This document shows, in pieces, positions 10,394-63,485 of a stretch of 64,000 nt of DNA; positions within the stretch are counted from its first letter, which is position 1; each line of letters opens with the position of its first letter. The position numbers and the translations under genes are program-made. The stretch lies in assembly GCA_964016885.1 (NCBI GenBank), contig OZ024742.1, positions 80,848,001-80,912,000 on the forward strand, written 5' to 3'. The notes beneath the pieces are model-generated. The model did not search any database. It was given only the letters and a program-made list of their open reading frames with translations, and was not told the DNA's origin. The DNA comes from Eledone cirrhosa (taxonomy: Eukaryota).

Positions 10394-10748
10394 TGTGAGC
10401 TACATGTGGCAGCAAAGAAAACGGCATCCAGTTTACTGAAATCCATATAGATTCTCCTGTATAATAAGAAGAGCACGAAACAATCCTGGACAGATTACAA
10501 ATATTCATTCAGATTATTGTCTGCTACTTCCTTTACAACCTCCAATTCTAATATGCTGAGTTACTTTCTAATACTCGAGATGTATGGCATATCATTCAAA
10601 TTTATGTGATGAACCTGTTGCAATATATCACCCTAGATTATTTGTAATGTGTCCAGGGTTGTTTCGTGCTCTTCTTATTATACAGAAGAATATGTATGGA
10701 TTTGAGTAAACTGGATGCCGTTTTCTTTGCTGCCACATGTAAGTCACA
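10394..10748. repeat. Inverted repeat, ~110-bp arms, ~135-bp spacer
   Basis: acatgtggcagcaaagaaaacggcatccagtttact...gattacaaata (10394-10502) is reverse-complemented at 10639-10748. Confidence 0.9.
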
Positions 10749-10763
10749 GAGAAGTAAGTGTAT

Positions 10764-12854
10764 GAGGACTCTATTTTCAGATAAAATAAAATATCGCAGG
10801 GGTATATTTCAGGGAGACAGTCTCTCTGTGATATTATTCATCCTGTCATTAAACCCCTTGTCCTTTCTGCTCAGGAAATGTGAAGGATGCATTATAGGCT
10901 CACAGGAGGACAGAAATACGAACCTTACCCACAATTTCTTTGTGGATGATCTTAAACTCTATGCCAAGAACATGGATGGGATGAAGACAAATATCGAACT
11001 GGTTACAACGTTCACAAAGGATATAGAAATGGAGTTTGGCCAAGATAAATGCCCATGTGTCACTGTAAAGCGGGGAAAACAACAACCCAATCTAGCAACA
11101 TTGTCATCAATGGCCTAACTGTTTCACCGATATCTGATGAGGACTGCTACAGATACCTGGGGATAGATGAGAAACCAGGAAACTCTATGCCAAGAACTTA
11201 GATGGGATGAAGAAAGATTTTGACCCGGATACAACATTATCAAAGGATATAGCAATTGAGTTTGGCCAAGATAAATGCTCATATATCACTGTATGCGGGT
11301 AAAATTACAACCTAATCTAGCAACATGGTCATCAGTGGCCTAAAGATTTAACCAATATCTGATGAAGACTGCTACAGTTAACTGGGGATAAATGAGAACA
11401 TATACTATAAGGGTATCTGTAATAAGGAACGCGTAACCAGCGAATATTACACCCCATTAAGAAAAATATGGTTATCGGAACTCTGTGCGCACAATAAAAC
11501 AGTGGCTCACAATTTATTTGCAGTTTGGACAATAGAACAAATATAAGCAATTGATATTAGGACTCGAAAAATACTAACCAACACCGGAAACTTCCACATC
11601 AACAGTGACATAGACCGCCTCTACTTGAAACTTAAGCAGGGAGGTTGAGGCCTAACATCAGTCCCGACAGCATTTGAATGTCGCATCATATCCCTCCGAG
11701 AACATCTACAAACCTCGAAGCATAGTAGCCCTTCTCTCGAGGAAGTCTATCTGCATGAGACAGATCAGATCATGAGCGTTGGGAAAGAACTCCTTGAAAT
11801 ATATTCCCTGCCTGATAAAAAATTCACAAACAGTGAATTTGCCCAGCAGTACCGCAGTGAATCCATGGATGAAACATTGCATATTTATCAGTTAAAAGGC
11901 AAGCATGGATACGTTGCCAGGAAGCTCCAGAGTAAGAGTAATATAGATAAAGGAAGTAGTGTATCTTGGACCAAAATCCGTATATTGGCTCCTACTTTGA
12001 AGGAGCAAGAAATCAACACGAAATACCTGATTCACAAAAGAGATAGGGGTGAAGGTAGAACACCTAGATGTGACAACTCTGCAGACTGCAAGTGCAGACT
12101 CTGCAGAATAAACATCGAAGATGACACGCATTTCATAAGCAGGCGTCCAAATATGTCATCGCGGTACTATCCACCTATGAAGCATGATGTAATGGCCAAA
12201 ACACAGTGCAATGCAATCCGTAGAAAGGTTAGCCCCGATAATAACCACATTTAAAGCTACAGCAATGTGGAAGACATACATATAGATAATATCAAAGAGT
12301 ACCGGTGGAATGTTTCAATAAAAACCCCAATAAAATAAAGGTATAACAGATCAGTTATAATGATATGGGACAGGGAAAAGAAGGCATGCCCAGTAGTGGA
12401 AATTAGCTGCCCAGCAGATGCCAATATAATATAAAAGATTAGCGAAGAGGACAATATTTATGCAGAACTAATGAGAATACTCAACCCTGACTATGCCTTC
12501 AGATTTATGCCTGCGGTTATTGGGGCACTGGTGTATGTTAGCAACTGCTTCAATGCAAATCTTGAGAAGCTGGACTTCACAGAAACAGAAAGAACACGAC
12601 TAGTTAACGAATTACAGGTACAATGCGTTAATGAAAATGTAAAACATTCCAAAACTTCTGCATCTAATAACTGCATATACACATGTACAGCTACAAAGCA
12701 TATACATATGCACACATATAACTCAAAACATCCACATCCACACATACAACAACATCCAAACCTGCACACACATGCGCATACAAGCATATATACCTGCCTA
12801 GTTGATGTTGTGCAAATTTCAATGAGAGAGTCTTGTAGCTATATTAGGAACCAA

Positions 12855-15041: not shown

Positions 15042-18002
15042 AATAATCGAAGAAATTTGACACTACGTGTACCATCCGAGTCTACCTCGACTATTGTGGA
15101 AAATACTATCGATAATGATAATAATCAAAATTATAAACAATTGAAAATGTCCCTGAAAGAAATCTTCCAGAGAGAAATTAATTCATGTATAAATATTTCT
15201 CTTGCTGAACGTATTAAAAGGACAATATTTAATTAAAAAAACAAATAATGAAATATTACGTGTTATTGACGAAATAGGGGATGAATATTTACGACGGATA
15301 AAAACCCCAACAGTTTGGCAAATCAACGCCTGTTTATATGCCTTAGCAACGGCAGTGAAGCATTATCTTGGAGATAGCAGAGATATTAACAAGAACAAAA
15401 CCCCACCAAAAATACCATCTTATATGACTAAAATAGAAAAGAAGTTTGCTGACCTACGAAAAACCATAGGATATCTGACAATGCTCCTTACATGCAACCA
15501 AACACAACAAAACTAACTCCTCGACAACAAGCAGTGACAATTAAAATAGAGATGATGTTTGGTGACAGTGGAACCAGAATTCTTCAATATAAGCTGATCA
15601 CTTTCTAACAAGAATTGAGAGCTGTTAGCGAAAAATGCCGATACCTGAAGAAGGTAGATGAAAGAAAAGTGCTTAATAAAAGATTCAGACGAAACCAAAC
15701 ATCAGTCTATAGAGATATGAGGGGAAAAATAATAAGTGTCACTGAGGCCCCATCTCAGCAAAATATAGTTTCCTTTTGGAGAAAAATATTGGGTGAAAAG
15801 AAGAATTTCAACCAAGATGCAGTGTGCCTAAAAGAAATCTGAAAGAACTATTGTCTCCTACACTACAGCATAAACATACGAAATAAGTGAGACTACCCTT
15901 GAGACTGTGATAGGACAATTCCAAGACAATAAAATCCCAGGAAGAGACATGATTGTCGGCTACTGGTACAAAAAACTGATATTCTATCGGAGGTATGTTA
16001 CTGACCTTTACCAACAAGTTATTAAGGGAGATATACATATACAAGAATGGTTGACATTAGCACAAACATTACTGGTCCCCAAGAACAAAGACATCCGATT
16101 GGCAAAAATCTACCGACCCATTGCATGCCATAACCTGATGTATAAGATGTATACACACTGCCTTAACCTATTCCTCCAAGATCACTGTGAACTTAATAAC
16201 ATCACAGATGAACAAGTAGCTGGAAAGAAAAGGGTGTAGGGATGTGCTGAACAACTCCTAATCAACAAAACTGCGATGTGGGAGGTGCGACAACTTAGGA
16301 GGAATATAGCTACAGCCTGGCAGGACTACAGGAAAGTTTTCGATTCTGTTCCCCACTCTTGGATGATAGAGGCACTCCAACTTGCTAAAGTACCATACAT
16401 TATTATCAGAGCCATAGAGAGGCTGTCTTCTTCTTGGGCTACTATTCTAAGGTTAAAGACAGAGATGGAGGACTCTATTTTCAGATAAAATAAAATATCG
16501 CAGGGGTATATTTCTGAGAGACAGTCTATCTGTGATATTATTCATCCTGTGATTAAACCCCTTGTCCTTTCTGCTCAGGAAATATGAAGGATACATCATT
16601 AGCTCACAGGGGGACAGAAATACGAACCTAACCCACAATTTATTTGTGGATGATCTGAAACTCTATGCCAAGAACATGGATGGGATGAAGACAAATCTCG
16701 ATCTGGTTACAACGTTCTCAAAGGATATAGAAATGGAGTTTGGCCAAGAAAAATGCTCATGTGTCACTGTAAAGTGGGGAAAACAACAACCCAATCTAGC
16801 AACATTGTCATCAATGGCCTAACTGTTTCACTGATATCTGATGAGGACTGCTACAGATACCTGGGGATAGATGAGAACATATCCTATAATGGTATCTGTA
16901 ATAAGGAACGCGTAACCAGGGAATGCTACACCCGATGAAGAAATATTTGGTCATCGGAACTCTCTGCGCAAAACAAAACAGTGGCTCACAATTTATTTGC
17001 TGTGCTTGTCCTAACACTAACGTTTGGAATACTCAATTGGACGATATACCAAATCCGAGCAGTTGATGTTACAACTCGAAAAAATACTGAACAACGCCGG
17101 AAACTTCCACATCAACAGTGACATAGACTGCCTTTACTGGAAACGTAAGCAGGGAGGCAGAGGCCTAATATCACTCCAGGCAGGATTTGAATGTCGCATC
17201 ATATCACTCCGAAAACACCTAGGAACCTCGAAGCGTAGGAGCCCGTCTCTCGAGCAAGTCTATCTGCATGAAACAGATAAGATCACGAGAGTTGGGAACG
17301 AACTCCTTGAAAGTTATTCCCTGCCTGATCAAAAACTCACAAACAGGGATTTTGCCCAGCAGTACCGCAGTGGATCCATGGATGATATTCCCTGTGTGAT
17401 AATAAACATTTCACACCAGTGAAGTCGCTCCGCTGTATCGCAGTGAATCCATGGAAGAAAACCTGCATGCTTATCAGCAAAAAATCATGCATGGATATGT
17501 TGCCAGGAAGCTCCAGTGTGAGAGTAATATAGATAAGGAAAACAACCTCTATATTGGCACCCACTTTGAAGGATACGCTTTTGCAATCCAAGAACAGGAA
17601 ATTACCACGAAATACCTGATTAACAAAAGAGATAGGATGCAGGAAAACACCTAGATGTGATAACAAGTGCAGACTCTCCAGAATTATCATCGAAGATGTC
17701 AGCCATCTCAACAGCAGCTGTCCAAAGACGTCAACATGGTACTATCTACCGATGAGGCATGATGTAGTGGCCAAAACAGTGTACAATGCAATCCGTAGAA
17801 AATATAGCCCCGATGATAAACAAATTAAAAGCTACAGCAATGTCGAAGACATAATATGAAAGAGTACTGGGGGAATGTTCCAGTAAATCCCCAATAAAAT
17901 GCAGGTATAACAGACCACATATTATTATATGGGACAGGGAAAAGAAAGCATGCAGAGTAGTAGAAATTAGCTGGCCAGCAGATGCCAGTATAATATCAAA
18001 GA

Positions 18003-21000
18003 CATCGAATGATGATGAATCCTCAAATCTCAAGGGACGGGGTTCATCTGATGGAGAAGAAACAGGTCCTAACCAAACAACAAGCAAATCTCGCTTAGTT
18101 AGCTGTAAAAAGAAAATAATAGTTAGCTCCTTGAACACCAGAACCCTCCTTCCAACAAGTAGACTCCAGAAGCTGGCAGAGAATGCCAAACTTCAGAACA
18201 TTGACATCCTTGCGGTCCAAGAACACCGCTTTTTCTACCCAAAGAATGATCTCAAGTATCACACCCTAGGATCCTACCAACTTGTCACCTCTTCAGCCAC
18301 CAAGTACCCTGTCAATGCCTCCGTCGGTGGAGTCGGCTGCCTTCTCTCATCTAAAGCCAGCAATAATCTTCTGGGAATTGAAACAATCTCTCCCAGAATA
18401 TTGGTGCTTACACTAGAGGGCAATCCTAGAACCACTGCGATATGTGTATACAGTCCTCAGAACGCCTCTCCTGAGAATGAGGTAAGAGAATTCTACACGA
18501 CCCTTCGCACAGTTGCTGAGCAAGTACCCTTACACAACTTTCTTATCATCGCTGGAGACCTCAACGCTCAACTTGGTCCGGATGAAGTAAATTTCACATA
18601 CAATAGGGTTACTAACCGAAACGGGGAATATCTCAAGGATTTCTTGGAAGAATTCAGTCTATTCAGCTCAAACAACAGCTTCATGAAGACCAGAGGCCAG
18701 CTTTGGACCTTCGAATACCCAAACCAAAAACGAGCTCAGATTGACTATTTGATATTTCGCAAGAAATGGAGAAACTCAATCAAAGATTCTAGATCTTATT
18801 CCTCCTTTAGCTCTGTTAGCTCAGATCATTGAGTCATCTCGGCAACAATCAAACTTAGCCTCAGGATATCCAAGAGGGCCGAACCTCATCCCATGAAAAG
18901 AATAGACTGGAAAGCCGTTTCTTCCAACAAACAACTATCCAATAGCTTCACGCTTCAAGTCTATAACAGATTTCAATCTCTCTCAACTTCTGACATCAAT
19001 GACGATAATATTGAAGATGTGTATGACTGTCTTAAGCAATCAACAGAGGAAGTTTCATTTGCTACCCTACCTAAAAAGAAAAGCCGAAGCCAAATGAAAC
19101 CTAGTGCCTCAGAGAGGGAGTTGAGGAAAGGGCCCATCTTAGGTCAATATCCCAATCTCACCATCAATCACCATCTCAAGGGAAAAAGATACAGCTTATC
19201 TTGGCCAAAAAATCATTAGACGACGCTTATCTTAATGCTGAAGCCGACTATATCTCAGGTAGGATTGATCAGCAATCGCAACATCACATCAGCAAACACC
19301 ATCATCTTGCTTGGAAGGTTGTCAAAGATCTTTCAGGCAAAAACTCAAACTCTGCAGTTGGAATCAAAGGAGGCTCTGCCAAAAAACGTCTTGAAAATTG
19401 GTCTGCTCATTTTAAAAACCTTCTAGGGAAAAAGGCCAGACTCCCTGATAACTATCAACTGCCATCCGTTCAGGTTTCAGAGCCTTTAGGAATCAACACC
19501 TCTCCTTTCACCATGCCTGAGCTGAAAGAAATCATCAAACAGCTCAAAGCCTCAAAAGCCTTTGGGCCGGATAATATACCTACCCTGATTTGGAAGGATG
19601 AGCATTTCCACATCCTTTTGCTCAACTTATGTAACCATACTTTCGAGACCAATAAACCACCTAGCCTCTGGCATGCAGCTCAAATTATCCCCATGCCCCA
19701 AAAAAGGAGATCTTTCTTTAGCCACCAACTATAGAGGAATTTCTCTCATGGTAATTGCCACAAAAATATACAGCAAGATTATTCTTAACCGTTTAGTCCC
19801 ATTTCTTGAGCCAAACCTTCGTAACAACCAGAATGGATTTAGGAAAGGTAGATCAACACTTAGCCAGATACTCTGCCTTCGCTGACTTATAGAGGAGTCC
19901 CAAAACCGCAATCTAGACCATGCACTCATCTTTGTTGATTTTTCAAAAGCCTTCAACTCAGTTGACAGGTCGGGGATGTTTAAAATGTTACAACTCTATG
20001 GGATTCCTTATAAAATCCTCGCAGCCATACGTATAATGTATACAGATACCAAATCAACTGTCCTGACCCCAGATGGGGAAACACCACCTTTCTCAATCCT
20101 CGCTGGAATTTTACAGGGCGATACCCTTGCAAGGTATCTATTTATCATTGTTGTGGATTATGTTTTGCGCATGTCTGTGGATAGGATTCAGTATAAGGGA
20201 TACCAACTACAGCCTAGGAGAAGCTCACGCTACCCAGCAAAATACTTGACCGACACCGACTTTGCTGACGACATCGCATTGACCAGTCGGTCACTGAAAA
20301 ATGCTGAGTCTTTTGAAGTCATTAGAGCAAGCGTCCAACTGTGTTGGACTGTACCTCAACGAATCCAAGACTGAGTATGTGAACAGATGCGAAAACAGCC
20401 CAAACTACCCCATCAGAACCCTTAATGGTACCACCCTTAAGCAGGTGGAAGATTACAAGTATCTTGGCTCATATATCTCCTCCTCCAAAAAATATTTTCT
20501 AACCAGGAAGTGTATGGCATGGTCAGCGTGCAATGACATGTACGCCATATGTACATCTCAACTTACCAACAAGCTAAAACTGGAAATATTCCAAGCAACC
20601 ATTAAGCCCATATTACTTTATGGATCCGAAACTTGGACACTAACATCACAACTTGAGAGGAGATTGGATGGCAGATATACCCGCCTCTTAATGAGAGTGC
20701 AAAACCTATCCTGGAAACGACATCCCACCTTGTCTAAAATCTATGGCGAACTCCCTCGAGCCTCTGCCCTTCTCAAATCCCGGAGAGCTCAATATGCTGG
20801 CCACTGTCACCGTGCCAGCAATGAAATCATATCCGCTCTCTTGCTCTGGAACCCTGACTCCAGCCTGACTAGAAGTAGGAAGCTGTCATTCCCTGACGTT
20901 ATCTCTAGGGATACGGGAATCAGTAGACAGAACCTGGGGGCAGCGATGGGGGACAGGGAATTCTGGGGCATGAGAGTGAGATCCATCATCTCGACAGTAG

Positions 21001-21022
21001 TCGACGAGTGATGATGATGATG
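18003..21022 (+). mobile_element. RTE/RTEX-like LINE (APE endonuclease + RT), nested in the R4-like LINE
   Basis: 13-bp TSD ataatatcaaaga (17990-18002 and 21023-21035); (TGA)n tail; EN motifs NTRTL, AVQE, GDLNA, IDY, SDH; RT motifs YRGISL, QNGFR, DFSKAF, GILQGD, FADD, YKYLG. Confidence 0.95.
18131..21011 (+). pseudogene. EN-RT polyprotein pseudogene of the RTE-type LINE
   Basis: ORF-track pieces 18131-18832, 18893-19219, 19201-19734, 19598-19885, 19976-20374 and 20301-21011 join into one disrupted ORF. Confidence 0.92.
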
Positions 21023-28207: not shown

Positions 28208-28248
<41 letters not shown>

Positions 28249-28252
<4 letters not shown>

Positions 28253-28917
28253 TATGTATACGTACAAACATATATGTATACAGACGTACAGTTGTATGTA
28301 TATATATACATACATGCACACATATATATATGTACGTATGGATTTACCGAACATGTATGATAATGCTCGGTATGATTGTAAATAAACATCCCGAATTAAG
28401 CCGTACAGTGTTTAGCAACCATCGTTGACCTTTTGTTCAAGACTGAAAAAGGAATGATGTACTAGTTTCAAGCTTGTTGGCTATCGTCAGCACCGTATAC
28501 CTTCCTGCCAGATTATTGAACGTCTGAAAGTATATACTTTCCTTATGAATATTAACGGGTGAGCAGCGTAATTTGCATAACAAGTGAGTTAATCGGCCGG
28601 GCGCACCGAAAACGATAAACGGAAAAAATTAAACGAAATTTCCTTTCTCAAACTTAGTACGGCTGTTACATAAATATAAGTATGTATACGTACATATATA
28701 TATATATATGTATACAGACGTACAGTAGTATGTATATATATACATACATGCACACATATATATATATGTACATATGGATTTACCGAACATTTATTATAAT
28801 GCTCGGTGTGTTTGTAAACAAACATTCCGAATTAAGCCGTACAATATTTAGCAACCATCGTTGCCCTATGTTCAAAACTGACAAAGGAACGATGTACTAG
28901 TTTCTAGCTTATTAGCT
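28249..28917 (-). mobile_element. Retrozyme-like ~428-bp tandem unit, left arm (1.55 units)
   Basis: Unit boundary taagtatgtatacg at 28249 and 28677 (428-bp period); no ORF; hammerhead on minus strand. Confidence 0.85.
28454..28496 (-). ncRNA. Minimal type I hammerhead ribozyme
   Basis: Reverse complement: acggtg-CTGACGA-tagccaacaagctt-GAAA-CTAG-TA-catcat. Confidence 0.85.
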
Positions 28918-30091
28918 GTTAATATGCATGAGGAAAGTATATATTTTCAAACGTTTAATCATCTGGCAGGAAGGTATACGTGCTGACGATAGCTAATACG
29001 CTTGAAACTAGTACATCATTCCTTTTTCAGTGTTGAACAAAAGGGCAACGAGGGTTGCTAAACACTGTACGGCTTAATTCGGGATGTTTTTTTAGAAACA
29101 CACCGAGCGTTATAATAAATGTTCGGTAAATCCATACGTACATATATATATGTGTGCATGTATGTATATATATATATACATACATACAAATGTACGTATG
29201 TATACATATATGTATGTACGTCACATACTTATATTTAAGTAACAACCGTACTAAGAGTGAGAAATGAAATTTCGTTTCATTTTTTCCGTTTATCGTTTTC
29301 GGTGCGCCCGGCCGATTAACTCACTCGATATGCAAATTACGCTACTCAGCCGTTAATATGCATAAGGAAAGTACATACTTTCAGACCTTCAATCATCTGG
29401 CAGGAAGGTATACGGTGCTGCGATAGCTAATAAGTACATCGTTCCTTTGTCAGTGTTGAACAAAAGGGCAACGATGGTTGCTAAACACTGCACGGCTTAA
29501 TTTCGCGATGTTGGTTTACAAACACACCGAGCATTATAATAAATGTTCGGTAAATCCATACGTAGATATAAATATACATACAACTGTACGTCTGTATACA
29601 TATATGTATGCACGTATACATACTTATATTTAAGTAACAGGCGTACTAAGAGTGAGAAATGTAATTTCGTTTCATTTTATCCGTGTATCGTTTTCGGCGC
29701 TCGCGGCCGATTAACTCACTCGATATGCAAATTGGGCTGCTCAGTATATACTTTCAGACGTTCAATCATCTGGCAAGAAGGTATACGGTGTTGACTATAG
29801 CTAAAAAGCTTGAAACTAGTACATCATTCCTTGTTCAGTGTTTAACAAAAGGGCAACGATGGTTGCTAAACACTGTACGGCTTAATTCTCGATGTTTGTT
29901 TACAAATACACCGAGCATTATAATAAATGTTCGGTAAATCCATACGTACATATATATATGTGTGCATGTATGTATATATATATACATACTACTGTACGTC
30001 TGTATACACATATGTATGTACGTATACATACATATATTTAAGTAACAGCCGTACTAAGAGAAATTAAATTTCGTTTCATTTTTTCCGTTTA
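28918..30091 (+). mobile_element. Retrozyme-like tandem unit, right arm (~2.9 units), inverted relative to left arm
   Basis: Three hammerhead positions: intact core at 28983-29013, deleted core near 29418, TTGACTA variant near 29791. Confidence 0.85.
28978..29019 (+). ncRNA. Minimal type I hammerhead ribozyme
   Basis: acgtg-CTGACGA-tagctaatacgctt-GAAA-CTAG-TA-catcat. Confidence 0.82.
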
Positions 30092-30099
30092 TATATATA

Positions 30100-31423: not shown

Positions 31424-31427
<4 letters not shown>

Positions 31428-32604
31428 AGAGATATATTTTAATTTTAATTATATCTCATAAAATAATACAACTGGCTTTTCCACATAATACATATTGTTA
31501 GCACCCCAAACACTTAAATTGGGTTTATATTAAAATATAACCCAATGTTTGTTGAGTGAGATGGTTACCAGTCAGAGATTAGCTTTAAACTATCTCTGTT
31601 ATTGTATTAATATTTTACTCTTGATTGGCCAGAGGTGTTTATTTCCAGGTACCTTATAAATTTGACTTTCCGTATTTATTACTGTTGTGCGATATTGTGG
31701 TTTTTATTGGTTGTAACTTCTCTGTTTTTTAACCTAAGAAAATATATATATGCCTATGTATATAATTACATGCATACATTTATTTTTTTAAATGAATTGA
31801 GTTCTTTACCCGAGGAATGGATATTAGTTTTGAAATAACTAATTAACCCGCGTGTGTTTTATGTTTTACTCTTAATTCGGCCGGAGATTTACATTCCCAT
31901 TTGCCCTTTAAATCATAACTTTCCGTATTTACTACGGTTACGAGATGTGGTTTCTTATTCAGGTACAACCTCTGATTTTAGCCTAAGAAAATATCTATAT
32001 GCGTGTGTAATTTATACACGCATATATTTATTTTTTTTTATTTCAATTGAGTTCTTAACACGTTGGATTGATAATGTTTTCGAAAAAACTTATTAACCCG
32101 CGTGTATATTATTTTTTTCCTCCTTTCGTGGATCGTAGTTGTCTCCCCTTCCCGCTTAGTGACGCTATAATACTTCCTCAGTCAAAAACTGCTGGAATTT
32201 CAAATTTGCCGGTCATTCGATGCGGGAAGGAGCAACTTAACAGACACGATTTTTAACTGTGGTAAGAAATGGTTTTCTTATATCAAAGTTTAATGGGCTT
32301 CCACTGATGATTTATAAGCACCCACCTAAATATATTCTTACATTAATGTATGTTAGGCTTCTACATAAACTGGAAATATTCTCCGAATTTGTAGAAAACT
32401 TATAATGAAACAATTGTTTGGAAAGAGAGATATATTTTAATTTTAATTATATCTCATAAAATAATACAACTGGCTTTTCCACATAATACATATTGTTAGC
32501 ACCCCAAACACTTAAATTGGGTTTATATTAAAATATAACCTAATGTTTGTTGAGTGAGATGGTTACCAGTCAGAGATTAGCTTTAAACTATCTCTGTTAT
32601 TGTA

Positions 32605-32609
<5 letters not shown>
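31424..32609 (+). mobile_element. Non-coding ~998-bp hammerhead element (1.19 units; 188-bp terminal direct repeat) in (TA)n
   Basis: 31424-31611 equals 32422-32609 with one mismatch seen; two internal ~240-bp diverged repeats; no credible ORF; hammerhead immediately before second repeat. Confidence 0.85.
32299..32423 (+). ncRNA. Intact-core type I hammerhead ribozyme with branched ~95-nt stem II
   Basis: ttcca-CTGATGA-t-ttataag-[two hairpins]-cttataa-t-GAAA-CAATTG-TT-tggaa; predicted cleavage after 32418. Confidence 0.85.
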
Positions 32610-32735: not shown

Positions 32736-32947
32736 TCTAATGGTAGCGGTATACCGGTTGAGCACTCTATGCTTCTACTGAGCAGAGTATGAGAGAATGG
32801 AAAAGGAAAAAATCAGTGATGGATCGGAACTCAATGTATTGTGTGTTACAATCGTTTCCCCGGAGCACAGATCCAGGTGCTATCTGTGTGTGGATCGACC
32901 TGACTCTGGACTCGCAGGTTCCTCCGACACTTCTATTGGTTTCGGAG

Positions 32948-33020
<73 letters not shown>

Positions 33021-33024
<4 letters not shown>

Positions 33025-33458
33025 TATGTATACGTACATACATATATGTATACAGACGTACAGTAGTATGAATATATATATACATACATGCACACATATA
33101 TATATGTACGTATGGATTCACCGAACATTTGTTATAATGCTCGGTATGTTTGTAAACAAACATCCCGTATTAAGCCGTAGTATATAGCAACCATCGTTGC
33201 TCGTTTGTTCAACACTGACAAAGGAACGCTATACTAGTTTCAAGCTTATTAGCTATCGTCACCAACGTATACCTTCCTGCCAGATTGTTGAACGTATATA
33301 CTTACCTTATGCATATTAACGGCTGAGTAGCCCAATTTGCATATCGAGTGGGTTAATCGGCCGGGTGCACCGAAAACGATAAACGGAAAAAATGAAACGA
33401 AATTTCATTTCTCACTCTTAGTACGGCTGTTACTTAAATATAAGTATGTACACGTATA
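33021..33458 (-). mobile_element. Retrozyme-like unit, second subfamily (420-bp period)
   Basis: taagtatgta at 33021 and 33441; hammerhead with C3G change (GTGACGA) near 33227-33268. Confidence 0.85.
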
Positions 33459-34480
33459 TGCATAAATCTAATAGAAGGTTCAACATTCAACTTTACACAA
33501 GGACAACATTTCACAGTTAAATACAACTTTACATGTGCATCTGTAAACCTAATCTATGTTTTGACCAGCTCAGGTTGCCGAGAGCATTACATAGGACAGA
33601 GCAAAAACAGCCTCCGACAAATCAAAATACAGGAATGAGAAAGATTGCCTTCAGTTAACATATCGCCAATTGTTCACCTAACCACCTACCAAACTTTAGA
33701 ATTTTGCCCACTTACAAGTTTATAGACAACGCTTTTTTCATCCATAGTACTAATAGGGAAACGTAGTTCATTAACAAATTCAAACCTCTACTTAATGGAC
33801 TAAATTTCGGACTAAACTAAAACAGGAACGAACAATGATCCATAGACGTTCTCTAAAGAGATACCTCCTACACCCTACCTAATATGTTTTCTTATATAAA
33901 TGAATTACCCCTCTCCTCTCTTTCTCCTACCCGACCACTCTGAATTAAATCCCCCTGCATATTAATTCTCTAAAAAGGGAAAACACATCCAATGTCAGGC
34001 GAACATTTGCCTCCATCATGGATCAACTTCTTTAAGCATTCTTACCATAATAAACATTTTTTGAACTGCTTATCCTCAAAAGACAATGCTTGTAAATAAT
34101 ATTATTATTTCTTTCCCATAACCTTATCATGTTCCACATCACCCTTTTCTTGACTTCAAAAACCTTGTTTGTAAATAATATCATACTTTCTTTCCATTTC
34201 AATAACATGTTCAACATAAGCTTAACCAATACAAATTCCCCTTTTTTCTCTCTCACTCACATAGGTTGATAATGCATAAAATGCTGAAACCGGTAATTGA
34301 TAATGATTAAATAAATAAATAAATAAATAAATAAATGCTATTGGTAATTAATAAATAGATTAACTATAACTTAACACTTCACACAAAGTAAAATACTTTG
34401 TTTTAACCATTTTCTAACCCAGAAAAAAGAGAAAAAGATAAGGAAAAATAAATATGTTTCTTCCTAATAATCATTTTTTT
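33456..34480 (+). mobile_element. 3' fragment of Neptune-like PLE (GIY-YIG remnant + 3' UTR)
   Basis: ICINLIEGSTFNFTQGQHFTVKYNFTCASVNLIYVLTSSGCREHYIGQSKNSLRQ, homologous to the C-terminus of ORF 49615-50403. Confidence 0.88.
34264..34298 (+). ncRNA. Minimal hammerhead-like motif, U3-A8 variant
   Basis: TTGATAA-t-gcat-aaa-atgc-t-GAAA-CCGG-TA; stem I weak. Confidence 0.55.
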
Positions 34481-34506
34481 CGTATATATATATATATAAA
34501 TGTTAG

Positions 34507-35087
34507 TATAGCATTGACGAAGCTTTAGTATACGGCCAAGCTAGCGTATATGCATAATCGGTCTGTAGCTTTAGGACTCGGATGAGGTAAGACCCCAGAG
34601 TAATAACATTACATTCAGACAGCTTAGCAAATCAGATATAGCAGTCGGCAGTCCAGCCAGTTTTTGACGATAGAACATAGGATTTACTTCTTCAGCAAGT
34701 CTTTCGTTCTTAGCCAAAGCAGGTATGTTGTAACTTTAAAAGTCACCACAGACACGTGGTTTTCTCCAAGGGAGGTAACCCCCGCTTAGGCGTTGTATTC
34801 TAATTGTATTATTCAAACCGAATAAATCACTCGACTAGAAGTTATCAAACAAACTTAAACAATTAATCAATCAATAGAATTATCAATTAAATTAATCAGT
34901 TAATCGTTAATTCTAGGAGTAAATATAAATTTAATACAGCATTGACGAAGCTTTAGTATACGGCCAAGCTATAGTATATGCATAATCGGTCTGTAACTTT
35001 AGCATTCGGATGATGTAAGACCCCAGATTAATAACATTACGTTCAGACAGCTTAGCAAATCAGATATAGCAGTCGGCAGTCCAGCCG
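34507..35087. repeat. ~150-bp direct repeat at 430-bp spacing (pLTR-like)
   Basis: agcattgacgaagctttagtatacggccaagct...ggcagtccagcc at ~34510-34658 and ~34938-35086. Confidence 0.85.
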
Positions 35088-35272
35088 CATTACCAGAGCA
35101 ACGAAAATACAGGACCCCGAAAAAGATTTTACACTGACCCTGACATAGCGGTGAGGCTGAGTGTAAAATATATAACTTACATCGTATATCCACAATATAG
35201 ATCACAATATCACATCCAACACCAGCGCCAAGTTTCGGCAAATCGAAGATCGACAAATTCCTATTGTAGGAG

Positions 35273-35340
<68 letters not shown>

Positions 35341-36627: not shown

Positions 36628-37096
36628 GCTAATATTGATATTCTATGGTGCTACATCATGGACTCTGTATATTAATCACACCAATCACCTTGATGGTTTT
36701 AATATGTGATACTTGTGTACCATATGCAACATAAATCTACTAGATCACATTACAAAAAGTGATGTTCAAAATGACATTACTTGCCACTGTCATTGTCTCG
36801 CATGAAACAAAGTAGGCCATGCAGTCCATAGGACAGCTGCAGCCTCAAGAGAATCTAGACACACAAATATATATATATATGTATATGTGTGTGTGTAGGG
36901 AGGGTGTCCGTGTGTGTGTGTGTGTCTGCGTGAATAAGGGTATATTATTTTCTCGAAATATATACGACAGGACGTTTGTATATGTATTTCAAAATTGGCG
37001 TATTTAAGACAATTGCGCCAACACACGAACTCCCACACACACACATACATACAAACACATACAACTGTCTACACTTGTATGTTTCTCTGCGCATGC

Positions 37097-39269
<2,173 letters not shown>

Positions 39270-39709
39270 CATATTGATTGATAGCCTGGATTAGTGGGAT
39301 CAGGAGGGCCAGAAATAAAAAAAAGTACTCGATTCATCGTGAGATACGGAGTGATTGATTGTATTAATTTTAATGGATGAACCACGATTTAGGCGGTTTC
39401 GGCTAGTTACCTCTTCGGAAGCGTTAACTACCGTAACCACTGTCGAGCCGGTAGCTGCTCTACTTTCATATATCTATATATTTATCTATCAACAAACTAT
39501 CCATCTGTCTATCCCTGTATCTCTCTCGCTTTCTATCTCTTTCTCTCTCCCTCTCTCTATCTCTCTTTCTCTCTCTCTGTATATATATATATATATAAGT
39601 ATGCATATCTAATAATATACGGTATGTTTACGAATAAACATTTTGAATGCTGACGGCTGGCGACGCTTTGACGATTCCAACAGAAGTAGTATATATAAAT
39701 ATATATAAG

Positions 39710-48002: not shown

Positions 48003-48100
<98 letters not shown>

Positions 48101-48158
48101 GATACACACACACATACACACATACACACATACACACATACACACATACACACACATA

Positions 48159-48226
<68 letters not shown>

Positions 48227-48235
48227 ATATATATA
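47995..48235. repeat. Compound (CA)n-(TA)n microsatellite
   Basis: Direct reading; abuts the 3' end of the Neptune-like PLE. Confidence 0.97.
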
Positions 48236-48765
48236 ATTAAAAGAATAGAGGTGTAACACACACGTTATTATATATTGGTAAACGGAATAGAAAATGCTGA
48301 CAAATTGTTCACAGTTGAAAAATGATTTAATTAGGAATAAAAGAGTATTAGTGATTGTATGGGTTAGTATTCAGTTGTGGTTTTAAGTTTTTAAGTTTTT
48401 AACGGTTGCGCATTTCTAAATGCTTTTCAAAAATAATTTTGAGATAGAGTGTCCGTGCTGTTTGCTCTGATCTGATTAGTTTTGGGAATTATACCTGTTT
48501 TTATGTTAAAAAAGTGGCTCCAGCGTTACTTTGGTGTTGCAAAAATTCTTGTGGTCAAAACAATTTTGATTGGTCGGTAGAGGTCATGTGAATGTAAAAA
48601 ATTGATTTTGCGCCAAGACTGTTTTTATGTTAAAAAAGTGGCTCCAGCACTACTTGGTGTTTGCAAAAATTCTTGTGGTCAAAACAATTTTGATTGGTCG
48701 GTAGAGGTCATTTGAATAAAAAATTGGTGTTGCGCCAAGATTGAGAAATGACTCTTTCACAACAA

Positions 48766-48807
<42 letters not shown>

Positions 48808-49268
48808 TATTAGTAAGGTGCTCGATGTTGTGATAATGGTTAGCAGGGATGTGTGTCAAATGGCTATTAAGATAGGTGTGTGTGTGTGTGTGTGTGTATA
48901 TAGGAGAGTAATTCGTGATAGCAGGGATGGTCAGTAAGAATGTGTCTGAAAGCAATGGGGGGGGAGGGTATTTTAGCATGTCAAAAGATATTTTTCAGCT
49001 TTTGTCTTATACTGAGAAGTGTGTGTGTGTGTGTGTGTGTGTATAAGTCTCTTTGTATGTTAATGTACGCGTGTGTATGTGTGTGTGTATATATGTGTGT
49101 GTGTGTGTGTGGGTGGGTGGACCAGTATTTTTTCTCCCTGGTAAAAAGGTGTACATTATTCGATTTTTTCAGTAAAATCGGTTCTCTTAATAGAACATCA
49201 AACATCTTAACAAAAAAAGGTGTGAAATGATATTCACTATATATATATATACACATACATACATTCAC

Positions 49269-49325
<57 letters not shown>

Positions 49326-49499
49326 TTTTTTGGTGTTGCACCATAGAGCATGTGTATTTACGTAAGTCATTGTGTTTATATGTGGGTAGAGATGTGTGCT
49401 GATTTAGGTATGTATGTTGACGTGTGTATGTTGTGGATTCGTCTTAGGGAGAAGTGTTTAGACGGGGTCCGTATTTGTTAATTAAGTAAGATTCCTTGC

Positions 49500-52400
49500 T
49501 GATGCGCTGGGTGTGGCTGGCATTATATTTAAATTTGTAGATGGGAAAGATTCTGAAGTTGGGATGATTTTGGGCGGCACAGGTATCAATGTGTACACTC
49601 AGTGGCATTTTCCTTTATTCCCGTATTTTAATTTGGGATCTATGGGCAGTCATGCGTTGGCGGAGGCTGTTTTTTGTCTGGCCTATGTATTGTTCTCGAC
49701 AACCTGAGCAAGTTACTACATATATTAGATTTTCCGATGCACATGTGAAATTGTGTTTTACTATAAAACGTTGTCCATCTTTGAAATAGAATTCCGAACC
49801 CTCTATTAGGTTGATGCAAATGCCACAGTTGGATCTATCGAATTTTTTTAATGTGGGTTTCGTTGTTGTGGTTGGCAGTACTTTGGCATGTGTTAGGATG
49901 TTTTTCATTGACTTGGATTGTCTTTTGCTCTTTATGATATCGTGTGTTCGTAGAATTTGGTTCATTCTATAGTCCTTTTTCAACACAGGGATGTTCTGGA
50001 GGATTGTGTCAAAGGCCTCATTGTTGAGGGGGTTGTGTGTGGAGATGTATGGAAGAGCTTTTAATTTCGGTTGATTTACTTTAGGGTGTCTAAGGTCCTG
50101 GGTACTGAGTTTTAGGTCACGTTGGATTCCATTGTCAATTAGTGATGCAGGGTAGTTCCTGCCTATGAGTGTGTTTAGTTCTTGTAGCCGTAAGTAGCAG
50201 ATGTTTTTATTGGAGACTATAGTACAGATTCTCTTGGCTAAGTTGTAGGGAATATTAATTTTAACGTGTCTAGGGTGCCAAGAGTTGAAGGGGAGATACT
50301 GCTTGGAGTATGTGGGCTTGTAGTATATGTCTGTTTCTATGTTTTTGTTATGGATGTTAATGAGGATGTCGAGGAAGGGGAGTTGTTGATGGCTGTATTC
50401 CATCGTGAAGTTAATATTCGTGTTGAGCCCATTTATAAGGGTGTGAAATTCTTTAAGTTTTTCGCGGTTTTCGTGCAGTCATCTAGATATCGCTTCCAGT
50501 TCCTTTCAATGTGTAAGTGGGGGGTGTTTCCAAATTTGTTTAGGACTTTAGTGTAGAGGTTGATTTCCAGGTATCCCATGACTAGGTTGGCATAAGTGGG
50601 GGCTGTTTTCGTTCCCATAGCGGTCCCAGATTTCTGCCTGTAGGGTCTGTTATTGAAAACGAAGTAATTGTTCTCCAAGATAAATTTGAGTCCCTCTATC
50701 ACGAATTCTTTTTTGATGCGTTGTGGGAGTTTATTGTGTAAATTATCCAGCCAGAATTGGATAGCTTCTATTCCTAGGTTGTGGGGGATGTTGGTGTATA
50801 GGTTGACTACATTGAACGTCACTAGTAGGGTTTGTTCAGAAAGTGGCATATTAGGGAGGTGATTGAGCATATCTAGGTCGTCCCTAATATAGCTTTCGAT
50901 GTGTTTGAGGAAGGGTTTGAGAAGGGTATCAATGAAGTTGCTAAGACGGTGCATTTCGCAAGCGGGGCCTGCTATTATAGGTCTTAATTTGAGATCATTG
51001 GGTGAGGGGACATTGATGACTATGTCTGTGGCTTCTTTGCATACTTTACTTATTGATTCGCTTTTATGTACTTGAGGGATACCGTAGAAAAGGCTGGATT
51101 TACTTGTGAAGTCTGTGATGAAGCTGAATTCCTTGTTAGTGAGTCCTTCTTTGTATTGGTTGATTAGAGTTTTTAGGTTTCTCATAATTTTCTGTTGATT
51201 GTAGTGTTCAGCCTTTTCGTAGTATGTTTCGTTTTCCAAAGTGGAGAGCGGTAAGTTGATATAAAATTCTGTCTCCATTAGGACTACTGTACTCCCTTCA
51301 TCAGCCTCTTTAATTGTAATGGTTCTGTCGGTTTTTAATCTATTTAATTCTTCCCATTCTTTCTTGTTGAGTTTTGGCTTGTGTTTTTGTCTGTGCAAGT
51401 GTTGGTAAGGGAAGTTTGTGATGTGTTCACAGAATTCGTCCAGGATTTCATTTCTACCTTTTGAAGGGGTGTAATTGCTTCTATTTCTGGCTAATGATTC
51501 ATCCTCATTGTACTGATCGAATAGTTGTTCACTAAGTCGTAACTTTCTACAGAAGTCTGTGATGTCTTCCTTCATTTCATAGTAGTTAGGACGTAGTGGG
51601 GTCGGTGTGAATTTAAGACCTTTGGAGAGTAAGTTGATAAGGTTGGGTGTTGGTTCTGCACTAGTAAGATTGATAATTTTTATTACTATCGGTTTCTCCT
51701 CCCTGTCTTGTGTTATTTTGTTTGCCTGTATCTGTGCGCTGTGTCTAAAACATGGTTGGGGTAGAGGGGTTGTCTGCTGATGTTAAGTGGTCTGCTGTGT
51801 TTGTTATATTCCTTGTTGTTGTAAAATGTGGTTCGGGTTGGTGGTTGTAGTTTGAATGGGGTGTTCCTGTACTGCGTGTATGGGTGTGTGTTTCTATGTG
51901 CCATGTTGTATTGTGGTGTTATAAGTGGCCTACGTTGTTGGTTGTATCGTGTGGTGTGGGTTTGTTGTGTATTGTGGAAGCGAGAGTTGAGAAAATGGTA
52001 ATTACCTTGCTGTCCCCTTGAAGCGTGGAAGTTGTTACATCTATCATGGCGGTGGTATCTTTTCCCTATGTTTGACGATGAGGCATCCGCGTAGTAGTTG
52101 AGTTATTTGGTATGGTGTCTCCTTGAAGGAGGAAAGTTGTAAATGTCATTCTGGGGGAGATGATTTCTTGGGTTTTTGTTCCTTCTTATGGTAGCGAGGT
52201 TGGGAAGTTCATCTTCGGTGTGGTGCTTCCTTCTTCGTTTGTTAGAGGCTTGGGGGTTTGAGAAGTTGTTGTGCGGTTCGGTTATGCGTTTTCCTATTTT
52301 TATGAACGGGTTATTGGAGGTGTAATCCGTTTGAAAAGTCGATTCATTGTGTAGGAACCAAGCGGCACTTTTTTCCCAGCGTTGAAGGGATTTCAGTTCT

Positions 52401-53023
52401 TCTCTGTTGCAATCCCCATTCCATAATTTGGAGATCTTCTCTACCTTGGGGCCTTCAGTTTTGTTGTTGATTTCCAGGATGATCTCTTCATCGATGGTTT
52501 TGAGTTTTTCCTCATTTGTCTGGGCCCTCAGTTTAAGAAGTTCAATTTCTGTCTTCATTTTTTCCAATGCCATTCTTTCCCTAAGGTGTCTTTGAGGTTC
52601 GGGTTCATTTGGAATGGACTTTATTTGTAGTTTACGGGGGAGAGTTAGAGGGGTTGAGTTAAGCCATTTTTCATATATCTCTGCTTTGTTGTGATTTTGT
52701 ATCATCTTCCAGAATGAGAACTTTCTGTCTCTGAGGGATTTGTTCCATTTTGGAATTGTTCGAATTTTAATTTTGTATGAATCAATCTCACATGGTTTTT
52801 CCTTGGTTTTTCCTCGGTTGGTAGTAGTGAACATAGTTTGGATAGTATCGCAAAGGTTTTGGAGTTTGTCGCCGATTTCGGAGGGTTTGTATCCGGTGGC
52901 GGTTTCCTTATTTGTGGGGTCAAGTTTGTCGACCACCAATGATAGGTTGGTGTTGATTTTCTTGAGTTCCTGTAGGATCTCTTCATTTGAGTTGATGAGG
53001 GTTGTATCCGTTTTTGGTGGCAT
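49500..53023 (-). pseudogene. PLE polyprotein: N-terminal helical domain, low-complexity linker, RT, Cys linker, GIY-YIG
   Basis: ATG at 53023 (MPPKTD); LLSKGLKFTPTP, IKEADEGS (DKG motif), RPII, LYTNIP, GTAMGT, RYLDD, LPFLD, CGIC, FTCASENLIYVVTCSGCREQYIGQT; few frameshifts and a small deletion after YLDD. Confidence 0.93.
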
Positions 53024-53211
53024 TTTCTGTATCTCGTGTGAGGATATGATAGTTAAACGAATAGAGGTGTAACACACAAGTTATTATATATTGGTAAACG
53101 GAATAGAAAATGCTGACAAATTGTTCACGATTGAAAAATGGTTTAATTAGGAATAAAGGAGTATTAGTGATTGTATGGGTTAGTATTCAGTTGTGGTTTT
53201 AAGTTTTTAAG

Positions 53212-53250
53212 TTTTTACCGGTTGCGCATTTCTAAATGCTTTTCAAAAAT
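53212..53250 (-). ncRNA. Variant minimal hammerhead-like motif in pLTR (also near 37372, 39028, 48398, 59476)
   Basis: ttt-TTGAAAA-gcatt-taga-aatgc-GCAA-CCGG-TA-aaa. Confidence 0.5.
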
Positions 53251-53310
53251 AATTTTGAGATAGAGTGTCCGTGCTGTTTGCTCTTATCTGATTAGTTTTG
53301 GGAATTCTAC

Positions 53311-53557
53311 CTGTTTTTATGTTAAAAAAGTGGCTCCAGCGTTACATTGGCGTTGCAAAAATTCTTGTGATCAAAACAATTTTGATTTGTCGGTAGAAGT
53401 CATGTGAATGTAAAAAATTGATTTTGCGCCAAGACTGTTTTTATGTTAAAAAAGTGGCTCCAGCGCTACTTGGTGTTTGCAAAAATTATTGTGGTCAAAA
53501 CAATTTTGATTGGTCGGTAGAGGTCATGTGAATAAAAAATTGGTTTTGCGCCAAGAT
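53311..53557 (-). promoter_or_regulatory. Duplicated 124-bp putative promoter module in pLTR
   Basis: Each unit has ttggcgcaaaa (E2F-like), tcacatgacc (E-box-like) and a CCAAT box (mutated in one unit of this copy); lies upstream of the ORF. Confidence 0.45.
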
Positions 53558-53678
53558 TGAGAAATGACTCTTTCACAACAAATATGTGTGTGTGTGTGTG
53601 TGTGTAGTAGTAGTAGTAAGGCGTTCGATGTTGTGACAATGGTTAGCAGGTATGTGTGTCAAATGGCTATTAAGATAA

Positions 53679-53714
<36 letters not shown>

Positions 53715-53726
53715 GTGCGTGTATGG

Positions 53727-53850
<124 letters not shown>

Positions 53851-54012
53851 GCAGAGTAATTCGTGGAATCAGGGATGGTCAGTAAGAATGTGTCTGAAAG
53901 CAATGGGGGTATTTTAGTATGTCAAAAGATATTTTTCATCTTTTGTCTTATACGGAGAAGTGTGTGTGTGTGTGTGTATAAGTCTCTTTGTGTGTTAATG
54001 TACGCGTGTGTA

Positions 54013-54050
<38 letters not shown>

Positions 54051-54251
54051 GGTGGGTGGACCAGTATTGTTTCCCCCTGGTAAAATCTTACTTCATTAAC
54101 AAATACGGACCCCGTCTAAACACTTCTCCCTAAGACGAACCCACAACAGACACACGTCAACATATATACCTACATCAGCACACATCTCTACCTACATATA
54201 AACACAATGACATACGTAAACACATATGCTCTATGGTGAAACACAAACAAA

Positions 54252-54302
<51 letters not shown>

Positions 54303-54308
<6 letters not shown>

Positions 54309-56347
54309 GAAGTTTATGAAATGGAAATGCGGGTATACAGAATTTATTAGGTAACAATTGTTTCTATAGTGTATGTGTTACCTATACCTCGCTATTTGAA
54401 TAATATAAAAATATTATCATAAACCGAAGGTACACTGTAAGCAAACACACCATGTCGTCAGACCTTTGTATTGGAATGATATGAAAATATTTTATACACT
54501 AGATAAAAGATAAAGAAGTAGGTAGGAAGAGAAGGGGAAGAGGGAAGTGAGTAAAGTGGAGGGAGTCTTAGGATTTAAGACTGTCAGACTAGTAGAGATT
54601 GTAAGGAGAGAATGTTTTGGCAGCAGTTAGCTTAATGAGGCGAGTTAGGGTTGGCGGGAAAAGTAAATTCTTCTAGTGGTGTTGTTCGGACAAAATTTAG
54701 TTAAAGGGGTCAAAGTGGTACAGTGTCACAGACAAGTTATTGGGGCTATTATAGTAGCAGGTTATTTCTAAAGGGGTCCTGGAAACAGTGTTTAGTACTA
54801 TTATTATAGAAAGCCATATCTTGTGTATAAACATATAAAACAGAAATTTGTAAACGGTGGTGTAAAAAGGTAACATTATATGCATTTAACAAAAGAAAAA
54901 GTCGTTTTCAAACGATGATTACAGTATAGAGAACGTTCAATTTTGCTGTTCAAAAGTTTGTTTACCGACGGTAAAATGCAGTATATCTCCAAATTGCATA
55001 ACTTGCAGAATCGATGATTTTGCCTATATGCAGGCGCAGGTGCAATAATTTGCCAATCAAGGGAGAATGCTTGATCGTTCCTCCGGAGCTGCCATGCGTT
55101 ATCGGCGAGTGTTGTTACGGAGCGCATTTTCTCGTGCCTGATCGAAGATCGATGTTGGTATAGGCGAGCCTTGAAAGAAGTTGCGGTACATCCGACGTAA
55201 TACCATTTGTTGGTTCCGGAATTTATTGTACATCGGTAGACAATATTGCGTGCAAGACACTGGTTATTCAGTGGGCACGTACCTGGTTTGGTGCAGTTCC
55301 AATTACTTTAATGTTTTGCAGTAGAATCCTGGATAGTTTGGTGGGGTTGTAGTTGCGTGTTAGTGCGTTGTATGTTGCTATGCCGGTGCGCTGAGTCATT
55401 AGGGATGTACTTATTCAGTAGTGCTGAGTTGAGTTTTTTAATTAGTTGTTCTATGTTAGGTGCAGTGGAGTATGAGAGTCTAATGGTGCGCGAGTTAAAG
55501 ATTTTATAGTATTTATGTCAAGTTGTAAAGTGTTTATTGATTAGTGTATAGAATTGTGAGATAATCTTAGTGCTAATAGAAGAATTGTACACGGGGTTAT
55601 ACCATATGTACTCTCTACATCTGACTCTATTTGCTGGTTTGCACCTATTAGTATGCCTATTGATGTGTGTGTGTGGTGCAATACTTAGATGTGTTTTATT
55701 CATAGTACTTATGTGGTTATCGTCTAAATATTCTATTTTCTCGCAGTAACCAGCTTTTCTAAGTGCGTCATTATAATATTCAGCATGCTCGTTGAAGGTC
55801 TGCAAATTAGACGACAGTCGGGAGATCCTTATGTATATATTTTCAGGGATAGATTTACTGTGCGTCTAGCTTCAAGTATAATATTAATTTCCTCGTTTGT
55901 GAGGTCCGAGTTAATTTTTGCGAAAGAGAGGGCCTTATGCAGGGTTTCGGGTGAAATAGAGGAATAGTATTCATCTATATCGAATTGAATAAAAGAAGAT
56001 TTGTTTTTGTCCCTAATGTTATTGAACCATCTCATTGCCTGATGAGTATTACCCCATAATTTAATATCTACCTTAGCCTAAACTTGGGGGATAATACGAT
56101 CTAATATGTACTTACTAATTCTACTTATATCGGACTTTGAAGGACATATTAATCAAATTTTAGGGTTAGTATCGAAGTTATCCTTATGGTCCTTCAGATT
56201 AAAAGTCGGTGTAGCTGGAGATAGGGGTACCGTTCTGTCGTCAATTTTCAGTTTCTTAACAATATCACATGCTGCATTATTAATGTTGGTTAGTGTAGTT
56301 GCGTTTGTTTTTTTGTACTTCCTATGTAATTCCTTATATAGATATAG
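54303..56347 (-). mobile_element. Naiad-like PLE, left arm of inverted pair, with 403-bp RT-core deletion
   Basis: LKDHKDNF, FIQFDIDEYYSSIS; EARRTV joined directly to the thumb region at ~55856; GIY-YIG and 3' UTR mirror the right arm. Confidence 0.93.
54349..54465 (-). ncRNA. Type I hammerhead with extended stem II (mirror of 58266-58382)
   Basis: Reverse complement aggt-CTGACGA...GAAA-CAATTG-TT-acct. Confidence 0.8.
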
Positions 56348-58428: not shown

Positions 58429-58523
58429 ATATTTAAATATATATATATATATACACATCTCTACCCACATATAAACACAGTGACATACGTAAACACACAT
58501 GCTCTATGGTGCAACACAAAAAA

Positions 58524-58610
<87 letters not shown>

Positions 58611-58980
58611 TATACATATTTATAGTGAATGTATGTATGTGTATATATAAATATAGTGAATATCATTTCACAACTTTTATTGTTAAGATTTTTGATGTTC
58701 TATTAAGAGAACCGATTTTACTGAAAAAATCGAATAATGTACACCTTTTTACCAGGGGGAAAAAAATACTGGTCCACCCACCCACACACACACGCACACA
58801 CATATATACACACACATATACACACGCGTACATTAACATACAAAGAGACTTATACACACACACACACACACTTCTCTGTATAAGACAAAAGCTGAACAAT
58901 ATCTTTTGACATGCTAAAATACCCCCCATTGCTTTCAGACACATTCTTACTGACAATCCCTGCTACCACGAATTACTCTG

Positions 58981-59015
<35 letters not shown>

Positions 59016-59632: not shown

Positions 59633-59737
<105 letters not shown>

Positions 59738-63472: not shown

Positions 63473-63485
63473 ATATATATATATC

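Follow-up and report, generated by a model that had tools for sequence, protein, structure and literature searches.

Layout of the composite locus

The composite locus consists of a minus-strand retrozyme unit (33021-33456) and a plus-strand PLE fragment (33454-34482), which are joined head-to-head with zero spacer. Positions are those of the window, that is, the whole 64,000-nucleotide stretch of Eledone cirrhosa DNA that was analysed; in the assembly, the locus lies at about 80,880,700-80,883,300 of contig C3. Both outer ends of the composite lie on (TA)n; two further repeats flank the composite and have these (TA)n tracts in common with it, and the focal locus is a stack of four (TA)n-ended repeats. 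A spacer-free fusion at about 33456 in the minus/plus arrangement, bounded by (TA)n on both sides, had been claimed by the first-pass annotation, and both points are real. The features, including two further copies of the retrozyme family, are as follows:

32736-32949, minus strand: left neighbour, 5'-truncated copy of a short repeat family, 17/200 = 8.5% from the family majority; old layer
32950-33021: (AT)36 tract, at which the retrozyme 3' end lies
33021-33456, minus strand: non-LTR retrozyme, about 1.03 units of a 420-422-nt repeat, 7/331 = 2.1% from the family majority
Retrozyme 3' end, minus strand: short (tail-less) site, at unit position ~21
33226-33268, minus strand: type I hammerhead with palindromic stem III ACTAGT and C3 changed to G
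33454-33464: head-to-head junction, GTA exact within a 9/11 imperfect overlap
33454-34482, plus strand: 5'-truncated Neptune-like PLE ("PLE-A") with linker end, GIY-YIG remnant and 3' UTR
33456-33635, plus strand: GIY-YIG remnant of 60 codons, interrupted by a stop and by a private deletion
34261-34300, plus strand: minimal hammerhead-like motif with U3-A8 core, stem III ACCGGT and broken stem I
34483-34498: (TA)8 tract, common to the PLE 3' end and the fixed end of the right neighbour
34499-35276, minus strand as judged from its fixed end: right neighbour, tandem family of ~370-nt units, fixed end on (TA)n
28243-30092: head-to-head pair of the retrozyme family with a short (unit 21) and a long (unit 77) end, both on (TA)n
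63129-63477, plus strand: solo copy of the retrozyme family, hammerhead core intact

The join had also been described as an overlap of similar sequence. This stands for an imperfect overlap, in which the usual continuation of the retrozyme matches 33454-33464 at 9/11 positions (6/8 in the bases beyond GTA), but the GTA at 33454-33456 is the sole exact microhomology (3 nt). At the position equivalent to the focal junction, the continuation is ACATACATA in 115/137 retrozyme copies, and the equivalent PLE breakpoint is preceded by TGTGGT in 16/24 PLE copies. The geometry had been likened to that of inverted insertions at 37209 and 54303. Both of these exist, but each is made of two arms of one family, not of two families.

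In the pair at 37209, the left arm alone carries a tail. This pair belongs to a further Neptune-like family (48056-53080, 37021-39274, 53044-54287 and 58453-59755), made up of a single decayed copy of nearly full length and several 3' fragments that contain 124-nt subrepeats. The arms of the inverted PLE at 54252-58473 and 57-1960 are 95% identical, and its endonuclease has a different cysteine linker and no evident CCHH. This PLE resembles the Hydra clade, in part by PMC8557442, and not Neptune. The window also holds a direct duplication (31424-31611 and 32422-32609; 188 nt, 99.5% identical, 998 nt apart) and, by motif appearance, decayed LINE-type RT and endonuclease frames (10648-12438, 16468-21011) and a hAT-like transposase remnant (6031-8251, minus strand).

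The retrozyme and PLE families

The focal retrozyme is 96% identical to the solo copy at 63129-63484 and 82-88% identical to the array at 28211-30092. Its family is dispersed, with a high copy number and no LTR structure. The 23-nt hammerhead motif had 8,917 exact matches in the genome, against 0 for the reversed control, giving at least 8,917 hammerhead copies. The units are 420-430 nt long, occur in arrays of up to 7 or more, and contained no ORF other than microsatellite frames. For an unselected set, we started from the first 100 motif matches listed, which fall in 63 loci, and took 60 of these; in these 60 loci, the CTGANGA core with stems I and II was found in 90/106 GAAACTAGTA halves.

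In the same 60 loci, the 3' ends lie mainly at unit position ~21 (short) or ~77 (long), 56 nt apart and followed by (TA)n, and the 5' ends are variable by 5' truncation. Head-to-head pairs were found at 30/60 loci (32 pairs). Both outer ends were canonical in 22/32 pairs, and all 22 combined a long with a short end; after two duplicates were dropped, 20/20 independent pairs were long+short (p=2e-6). The remaining 10/32 pairs had a non-canonical end, with L118 among them possibly long+long. The 29 best-matching loci and the window gave 7 independent long+short pairs and one short+short pair (L005), and solo 3' ends (n=35) were short in 14 cases, long in 12 and other in 9. Some pairs were duplicated together with their flanks, in segmental or tandem fashion over ~2.3-2.6 kb (L006, L007, L014 and L015 at C3 ~294.91 Mb; L084; L105/L106).

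The optional tail that inverted copies carry at one end is a hallmark of PLEs (PMC8557442, PMC3846280); it reflects two RT start sites and has been termed unique to PLEs (PMC11167929). The two 3' ends and the long+short pairs of the retrozyme amount to this tail signature, by which PLE-type mobilisation of the family appears well supported. It is likely that some PLE protein moves the retrozyme in trans and that each head-to-head pair was made by two priming events at one break. The focal junction had been put forward as direct evidence that a Neptune-type RT mobilises the retrozyme; PLE machinery is backed by the family-wide end structure, but the junction itself is no direct evidence. A comparison of the retrozyme with 13 library sequences for pLTR homology gave scores inside the shuffle range.

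The PLE half carries the GIY-YIG remnant in the plus-strand frame from 33456, which reads ICINLIEG...YVLTSSGCREHYIGQSKNSL and is 78% identical over 165 nt to 49821-49657 of the window. The 60-residue remnant alone had no match in Pfam; related ORFs in the window match GIY-YIG and RVT_1 weakly. In long PLE-A copies (L125 and L136, 82-84% identical to the focal piece), RT motifs lie upstream of the endonuclease. A linker of the form C-x4-C-x2-C, within the CX2-5CxxC pattern, was read by eye just upstream of the breakpoint in PLE-A DNA, and a CCHH endonuclease motif is present in the L125 frame LTCSGC...TVH...SEH and partly lost in the focal copy. Among known clades, Naiad is described as lacking the C-terminal GIY-YIG, the linker as absent in Poseidon and reduced in Nematis, and CCHH as absent in Hydra (PMC8557442). 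By these motif criteria, the PLE half appears Neptune-like rather than Poseidon, Naiad or Hydra.

We searched for the PLE half in its own genome (3.0 Gb). There were 2,004 candidates, and among the 40 that were scored, no source copy was found, the best other match being 86%. When up to one mismatch is allowed, the joint of its private deletion has a single match in the genome. PLE-A 3' ends were short (tail-less) in 45/60 cases, and PLE-A pairs (n=17) comprised 12 long+short, 4 short+short and 1 long+long. A second PLE family (L182-L205) has a U3-A8 hammerhead motif with a well-paired stem II, kept in most of 24 copies, and GIY-YIG upstream in several copies.

Minimal hammerheads with palindromic stem III had been noted in both halves. 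Both palindromes are present, ACTAGT at 33233-33238 on the minus strand and ACCGGT at 34289-34294 on the plus strand, but both ribozymes are damaged here. In the retrozyme, C3 is changed to G at 33262 and the first stem-I base is altered at 33231. A C3G change abolishes hammerhead cleavage (PMC11167929), and the focal retrozyme hammerhead is likely inactive because it carries this change. In the PLE half, private changes at 34264 and 34265 disrupt stem I. The U3-A8 core of this motif is family-wide in PLE-A (TTGATAA in 37/50 motifs) and is a variant known from Schistosoma Cercyon PLEs (PMC4209133). In both hammerheads (33226-33268 and 34261-34300), stem II starts at its base with a U opposite a U, followed by a 4-bp helix. 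An Rfam scan gave zero hammerhead matches at E<=1, with 125 weak matches that were microsatellite-driven, and monomer folds of four hammerhead stretches had z-scores of about 0 against shuffles, which is uninformative for motifs expected to act as dimers. The ribozyme calls therefore rest on motif conservation across copies. The common palindromic stem III had also been offered as a sign that the two halves are partners; we rejected this, since palindromic stem III is a general trait of metazoan type I hammerheads (PMC4209133).

Both flanking repeats belong to abundant families. The left-neighbour family (window 32736-32949 and L218-L226) has 1,496 candidates, and no ORF or hammerhead was found in 9 loci. 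An inverted partner was present at 20/39 other scored places, and the partners mostly end ~48 nt short, so this family appears to follow the same long+short rule. The right-neighbour family (window 34499-35276 and L208-L216) has 2,395 candidates with ~370-nt tandem units and a retrozyme-like organisation; no hammerhead was found in it by motif scan.

Ages of the layers and origin of the composite

The two halves differ in their divergence from the family majority. The retrozyme half differs at 7/331 positions (2.1%) with no indel, and the PLE half at 50/827 (6.0%) with 7 indels (Fisher p=0.004; non-CpG positions 7/293 vs 48/801, p=0.018). For each comparison, 40 candidates were scored (from 1,144 retrozyme and 2,004 PLE candidates) and the best 29, picked by likeness to the focal copy, were used. 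Changes found in at most one of the 29 copies made up 44/50 in the PLE half and 1/7 in the retrozyme, where allele sharing is inflated because the copies were picked in this way. In unselected retrozyme arms, the median divergence was 1.9% (n=86), and the age profile of the retrozyme family peaks at 1-3%. With 11, 13 and 10 comparison copies for the neighbour age control, the left neighbour (17/200, 8.5%) differs from the retrozyme (p=0.0009) and not from the PLE half (p=0.20), and the right neighbour (36/583, 6.2%) likewise differs from the retrozyme (p=0.005) and not from the PLE half (p=0.91).

Because three of the four stacked repeats are 6-8.5% diverged and the retrozyme between them is 2.1% diverged, we favour two separate insertions, in which a young retrozyme inserted later beside an older Neptune-like fragment. 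We give this reading a probability of about 70%, and the focal junction is probably an ordinary case of nesting at a (TA)n hot spot. In such an insertion, a PLE endonuclease would have cut the (TA)n tract to the left of the old PLE fragment, and a PLE reverse transcriptase would have begun at the short-end start site of the retrozyme and transcribed about one unit. The end of the cDNA would then have been attached to the opposite side of the break by GTA/TA-like microhomology, and this joining may have removed leftover (TA)n or upstream PLE sequence. Against this reading stands the age of the youngest PLE-A copies (1.5%, measured at the ORF end), which overlaps with that of the retrozyme; the PLE-A family may thus have been active when the retrozyme inserted. 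The left-neighbour copy has a long end, lies head-to-head towards the PLE half and is of similar age. From these three features, the left neighbour and the PLE half could be an older pair that was split by the retrozyme, with a putative joint overlap that is not clean.

PLEs occupy 16,343 of the 64,000 bases of the window (26%), and the PLE library matches 1,271 of 55,292 flank bases. From this flank share and ~2,500 solo copies, a rough estimate puts the head-to-head joints expected by chance at some tens per genome. The 47 other solo retrozymes, a set obtained after three duplicated best-30 loci and L106 were dropped, had no 5' end joined to library sequence (0/47; four PLE families and two neighbour families), and none of 89 PLE-A loci had a retrozyme at the 5' joint. 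An enrichment of retrozyme-PLE chimeras, which a common origin had been thought to leave, was thus absent from the sampled loci: the pooled count of other junctions is 0/136, with an upper 95% bound of 2.2%. A query with the composite DNA returned only PLE matches among all 40 scored candidates, at low power. In 27/48 cases, the solo 5' end lies inside a repeat seen in other fetched loci, a few of these being short retrozyme or microsatellite matches.

Two further candidates were tried and rejected. In L067, which looked like a second fusion, a retrozyme and a PLE lie head-to-head about 420 nt apart and are unfused. In L181 (1486-1800, minus strand; the same place as L169), ~60 nt of the retrozyme long tail and the 3' UTR of the second PLE family are joined and run in the same direction, in the order retrozyme tail, second-PLE 3' UTR, (TA)n and PLE-A fragment (1/25 loci). 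A PLE family with a retrozyme tail was rejected here, because 24 other copies of the second PLE family have no such tail; L169/L181 is a single same-direction joint, possibly a template switch or a short insertion.

The first-pass annotation had proposed one integration event with two RNA templates. A PLE protein would have primed both ends of one (TA)n break, on retrozyme RNA and on a decayed Neptune-like RNA, and the products would have been joined by microhomology. The geometry is indeed that of true pairs, with heads joined, (TA)n outside and a small overlap, and the Poseidon protein of Anolis acts on both strands, cutting and extending each, with a dimer as its predicted form (PMC11167929). 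The same PLE breakpoint also occurs in a true inverted joint between PLEs: at L057 (position 2368), PLE-A is joined to itself in inverted orientation within the palindrome TATGCATA (1/29 loci). However, a single two-template event is expected to leave halves of equal age, and this expectation failed (2.1% vs 6.0%). The arms of true retrozyme pairs do sometimes diverge unequally, at p<0.05 in 2/22 pairs (4.2 vs 1.0%; 5.3 vs 2.2%), but the gap here is threefold and the PLE half matches its old neighbours. The outer ends of the composite are short+short, where true pairs have one tailed end. On the PLE side this point is weak: PLE-A tails are often absent (45/60), a neighbour abuts the PLE end, and its insertion could have removed a PLE tail. 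The missing source copy of the PLE half (best match 86%) and the count of 0/136 also speak against a single event, and a comparison of the retrozyme unit (positions 21-345) with the final 1.2 kb of each PLE tested showed no local similarity above shuffles. With the age gap, no enrichment of fusions and, less firmly, two tail-less outer ends, we consider one event unlikely. It is equally doubtful that the junction fossilises one PLE dimer priming on retrozyme and decayed Neptune-like RNAs, which would name a Neptune-type mobiliser and explain the long+short rule by each subunit working at a different RT start site.

The remaining explanation, that two spaced or larger insertions were later fused by a microhomology-mediated deletion, for example with loss of a second retrozyme arm and of the upstream part of the PLE, seems to us the least probable. 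Inverted pairs are deletion-prone, half of the retrozyme loci are inverted pairs, and spaced head-to-head neighbours exist, as at L067. For most solo copies, moreover, the repeat that the 5' end joins is not continued beyond the retrozyme, and microhomology deletions of PLE copies have been reported (PMC3846280). Against this, a later deletion requires an extra step and is indistinguishable, with one genome, from a deletion at insertion, and young solos are fused directly at the 5' end so often (27/48) that the fusion seems to belong to the insertion itself.

We therefore keep two separate insertions as the preferred reading, with an order of insertion taken from divergence only, because no empty or single-part allele was seen at the focal locus. 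One public run (0.48 of words) gave short contigs 99-100% identical to the PLE half; none of its listed contigs bridges or contradicts the junction, and the run may be the assembly's own sample.

Comparison with known systems

How retrozymes enter DNA in animals has so far been addressed by proposing PLE mobilisation from co-occurrence and pLTR homology. PLEs were proposed as retrozyme mobilisers by Cervera and de la Pena (2020, PMC7229834). The metazoan non-LTR retrozymes described there resemble the present family in having a non-coding tandem unit (range 150-450 nt) with a type I hammerhead per unit, thousands of dispersed copies from monomers to multimers, and coexisting PLEs. In contrast, insertions of the family studied here target (TA)n, have their 3' ends at two fixed sites and form head-to-head pairs, and the words "inverted" and "microsatellite" are absent from that paper. 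Self-cleavage and circular RNA are putative in the present family.

Co-occurrence and pLTR homology in Xenopus have been used to argue that retrozymes are non-autonomous PLE derivatives (Li, Clavereau and Pollet, bioRxiv 10.64898/2026.07.22.740005). Our analysis likewise points to PLE proteins as the likely movers of animal retrozymes, but by an insertion footprint and without pLTR homology; "tail" and "junction" do not occur in the main text of that preprint. A full-text literature search, outside subscription journals and supplements, found no paper reporting a tail footprint on retrozymes.

The PLE half compares best with the Neptune PLEs (Craig et al. 2021, PMC8557442). PLE-A has the same RT, CX4CxxC linker and C-terminal GIY-YIG with CCHH, and likewise a 3'-region hammerhead motif, 5'-truncated and inverted copies, an optional tail and (TA)n ends. 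The focal copy differs in being a dead 1-kb fragment, and its likeness to Neptune is one of motifs.

For the insertion footprint, the closest system is the Poseidon element of Anolis (PAc; Frangieh et al. 2024, PMC11167929), in which, as here, an optional tail is bounded by a pair of RT start sites, cutting and extension take place on both DNA strands, and targets are AT-rich. The retrozyme family adds countable evidence to such work, namely a PLE-specific tail, asymmetric in head-to-head pairs, on thousands of young non-coding ribozyme copies. We believe that this family-wide long+short rule, rather than the single junction, is the part worth following, and two defined RT start sites on a 422-nt RNA offer a compact substrate for a trans-mobilisation assay and for the two-ended priming model. 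Compared with PAc, the retrozyme tail is 56 nt long against 30-40 nt, and the rule of one long and one short end is counted here on a non-coding passenger element.
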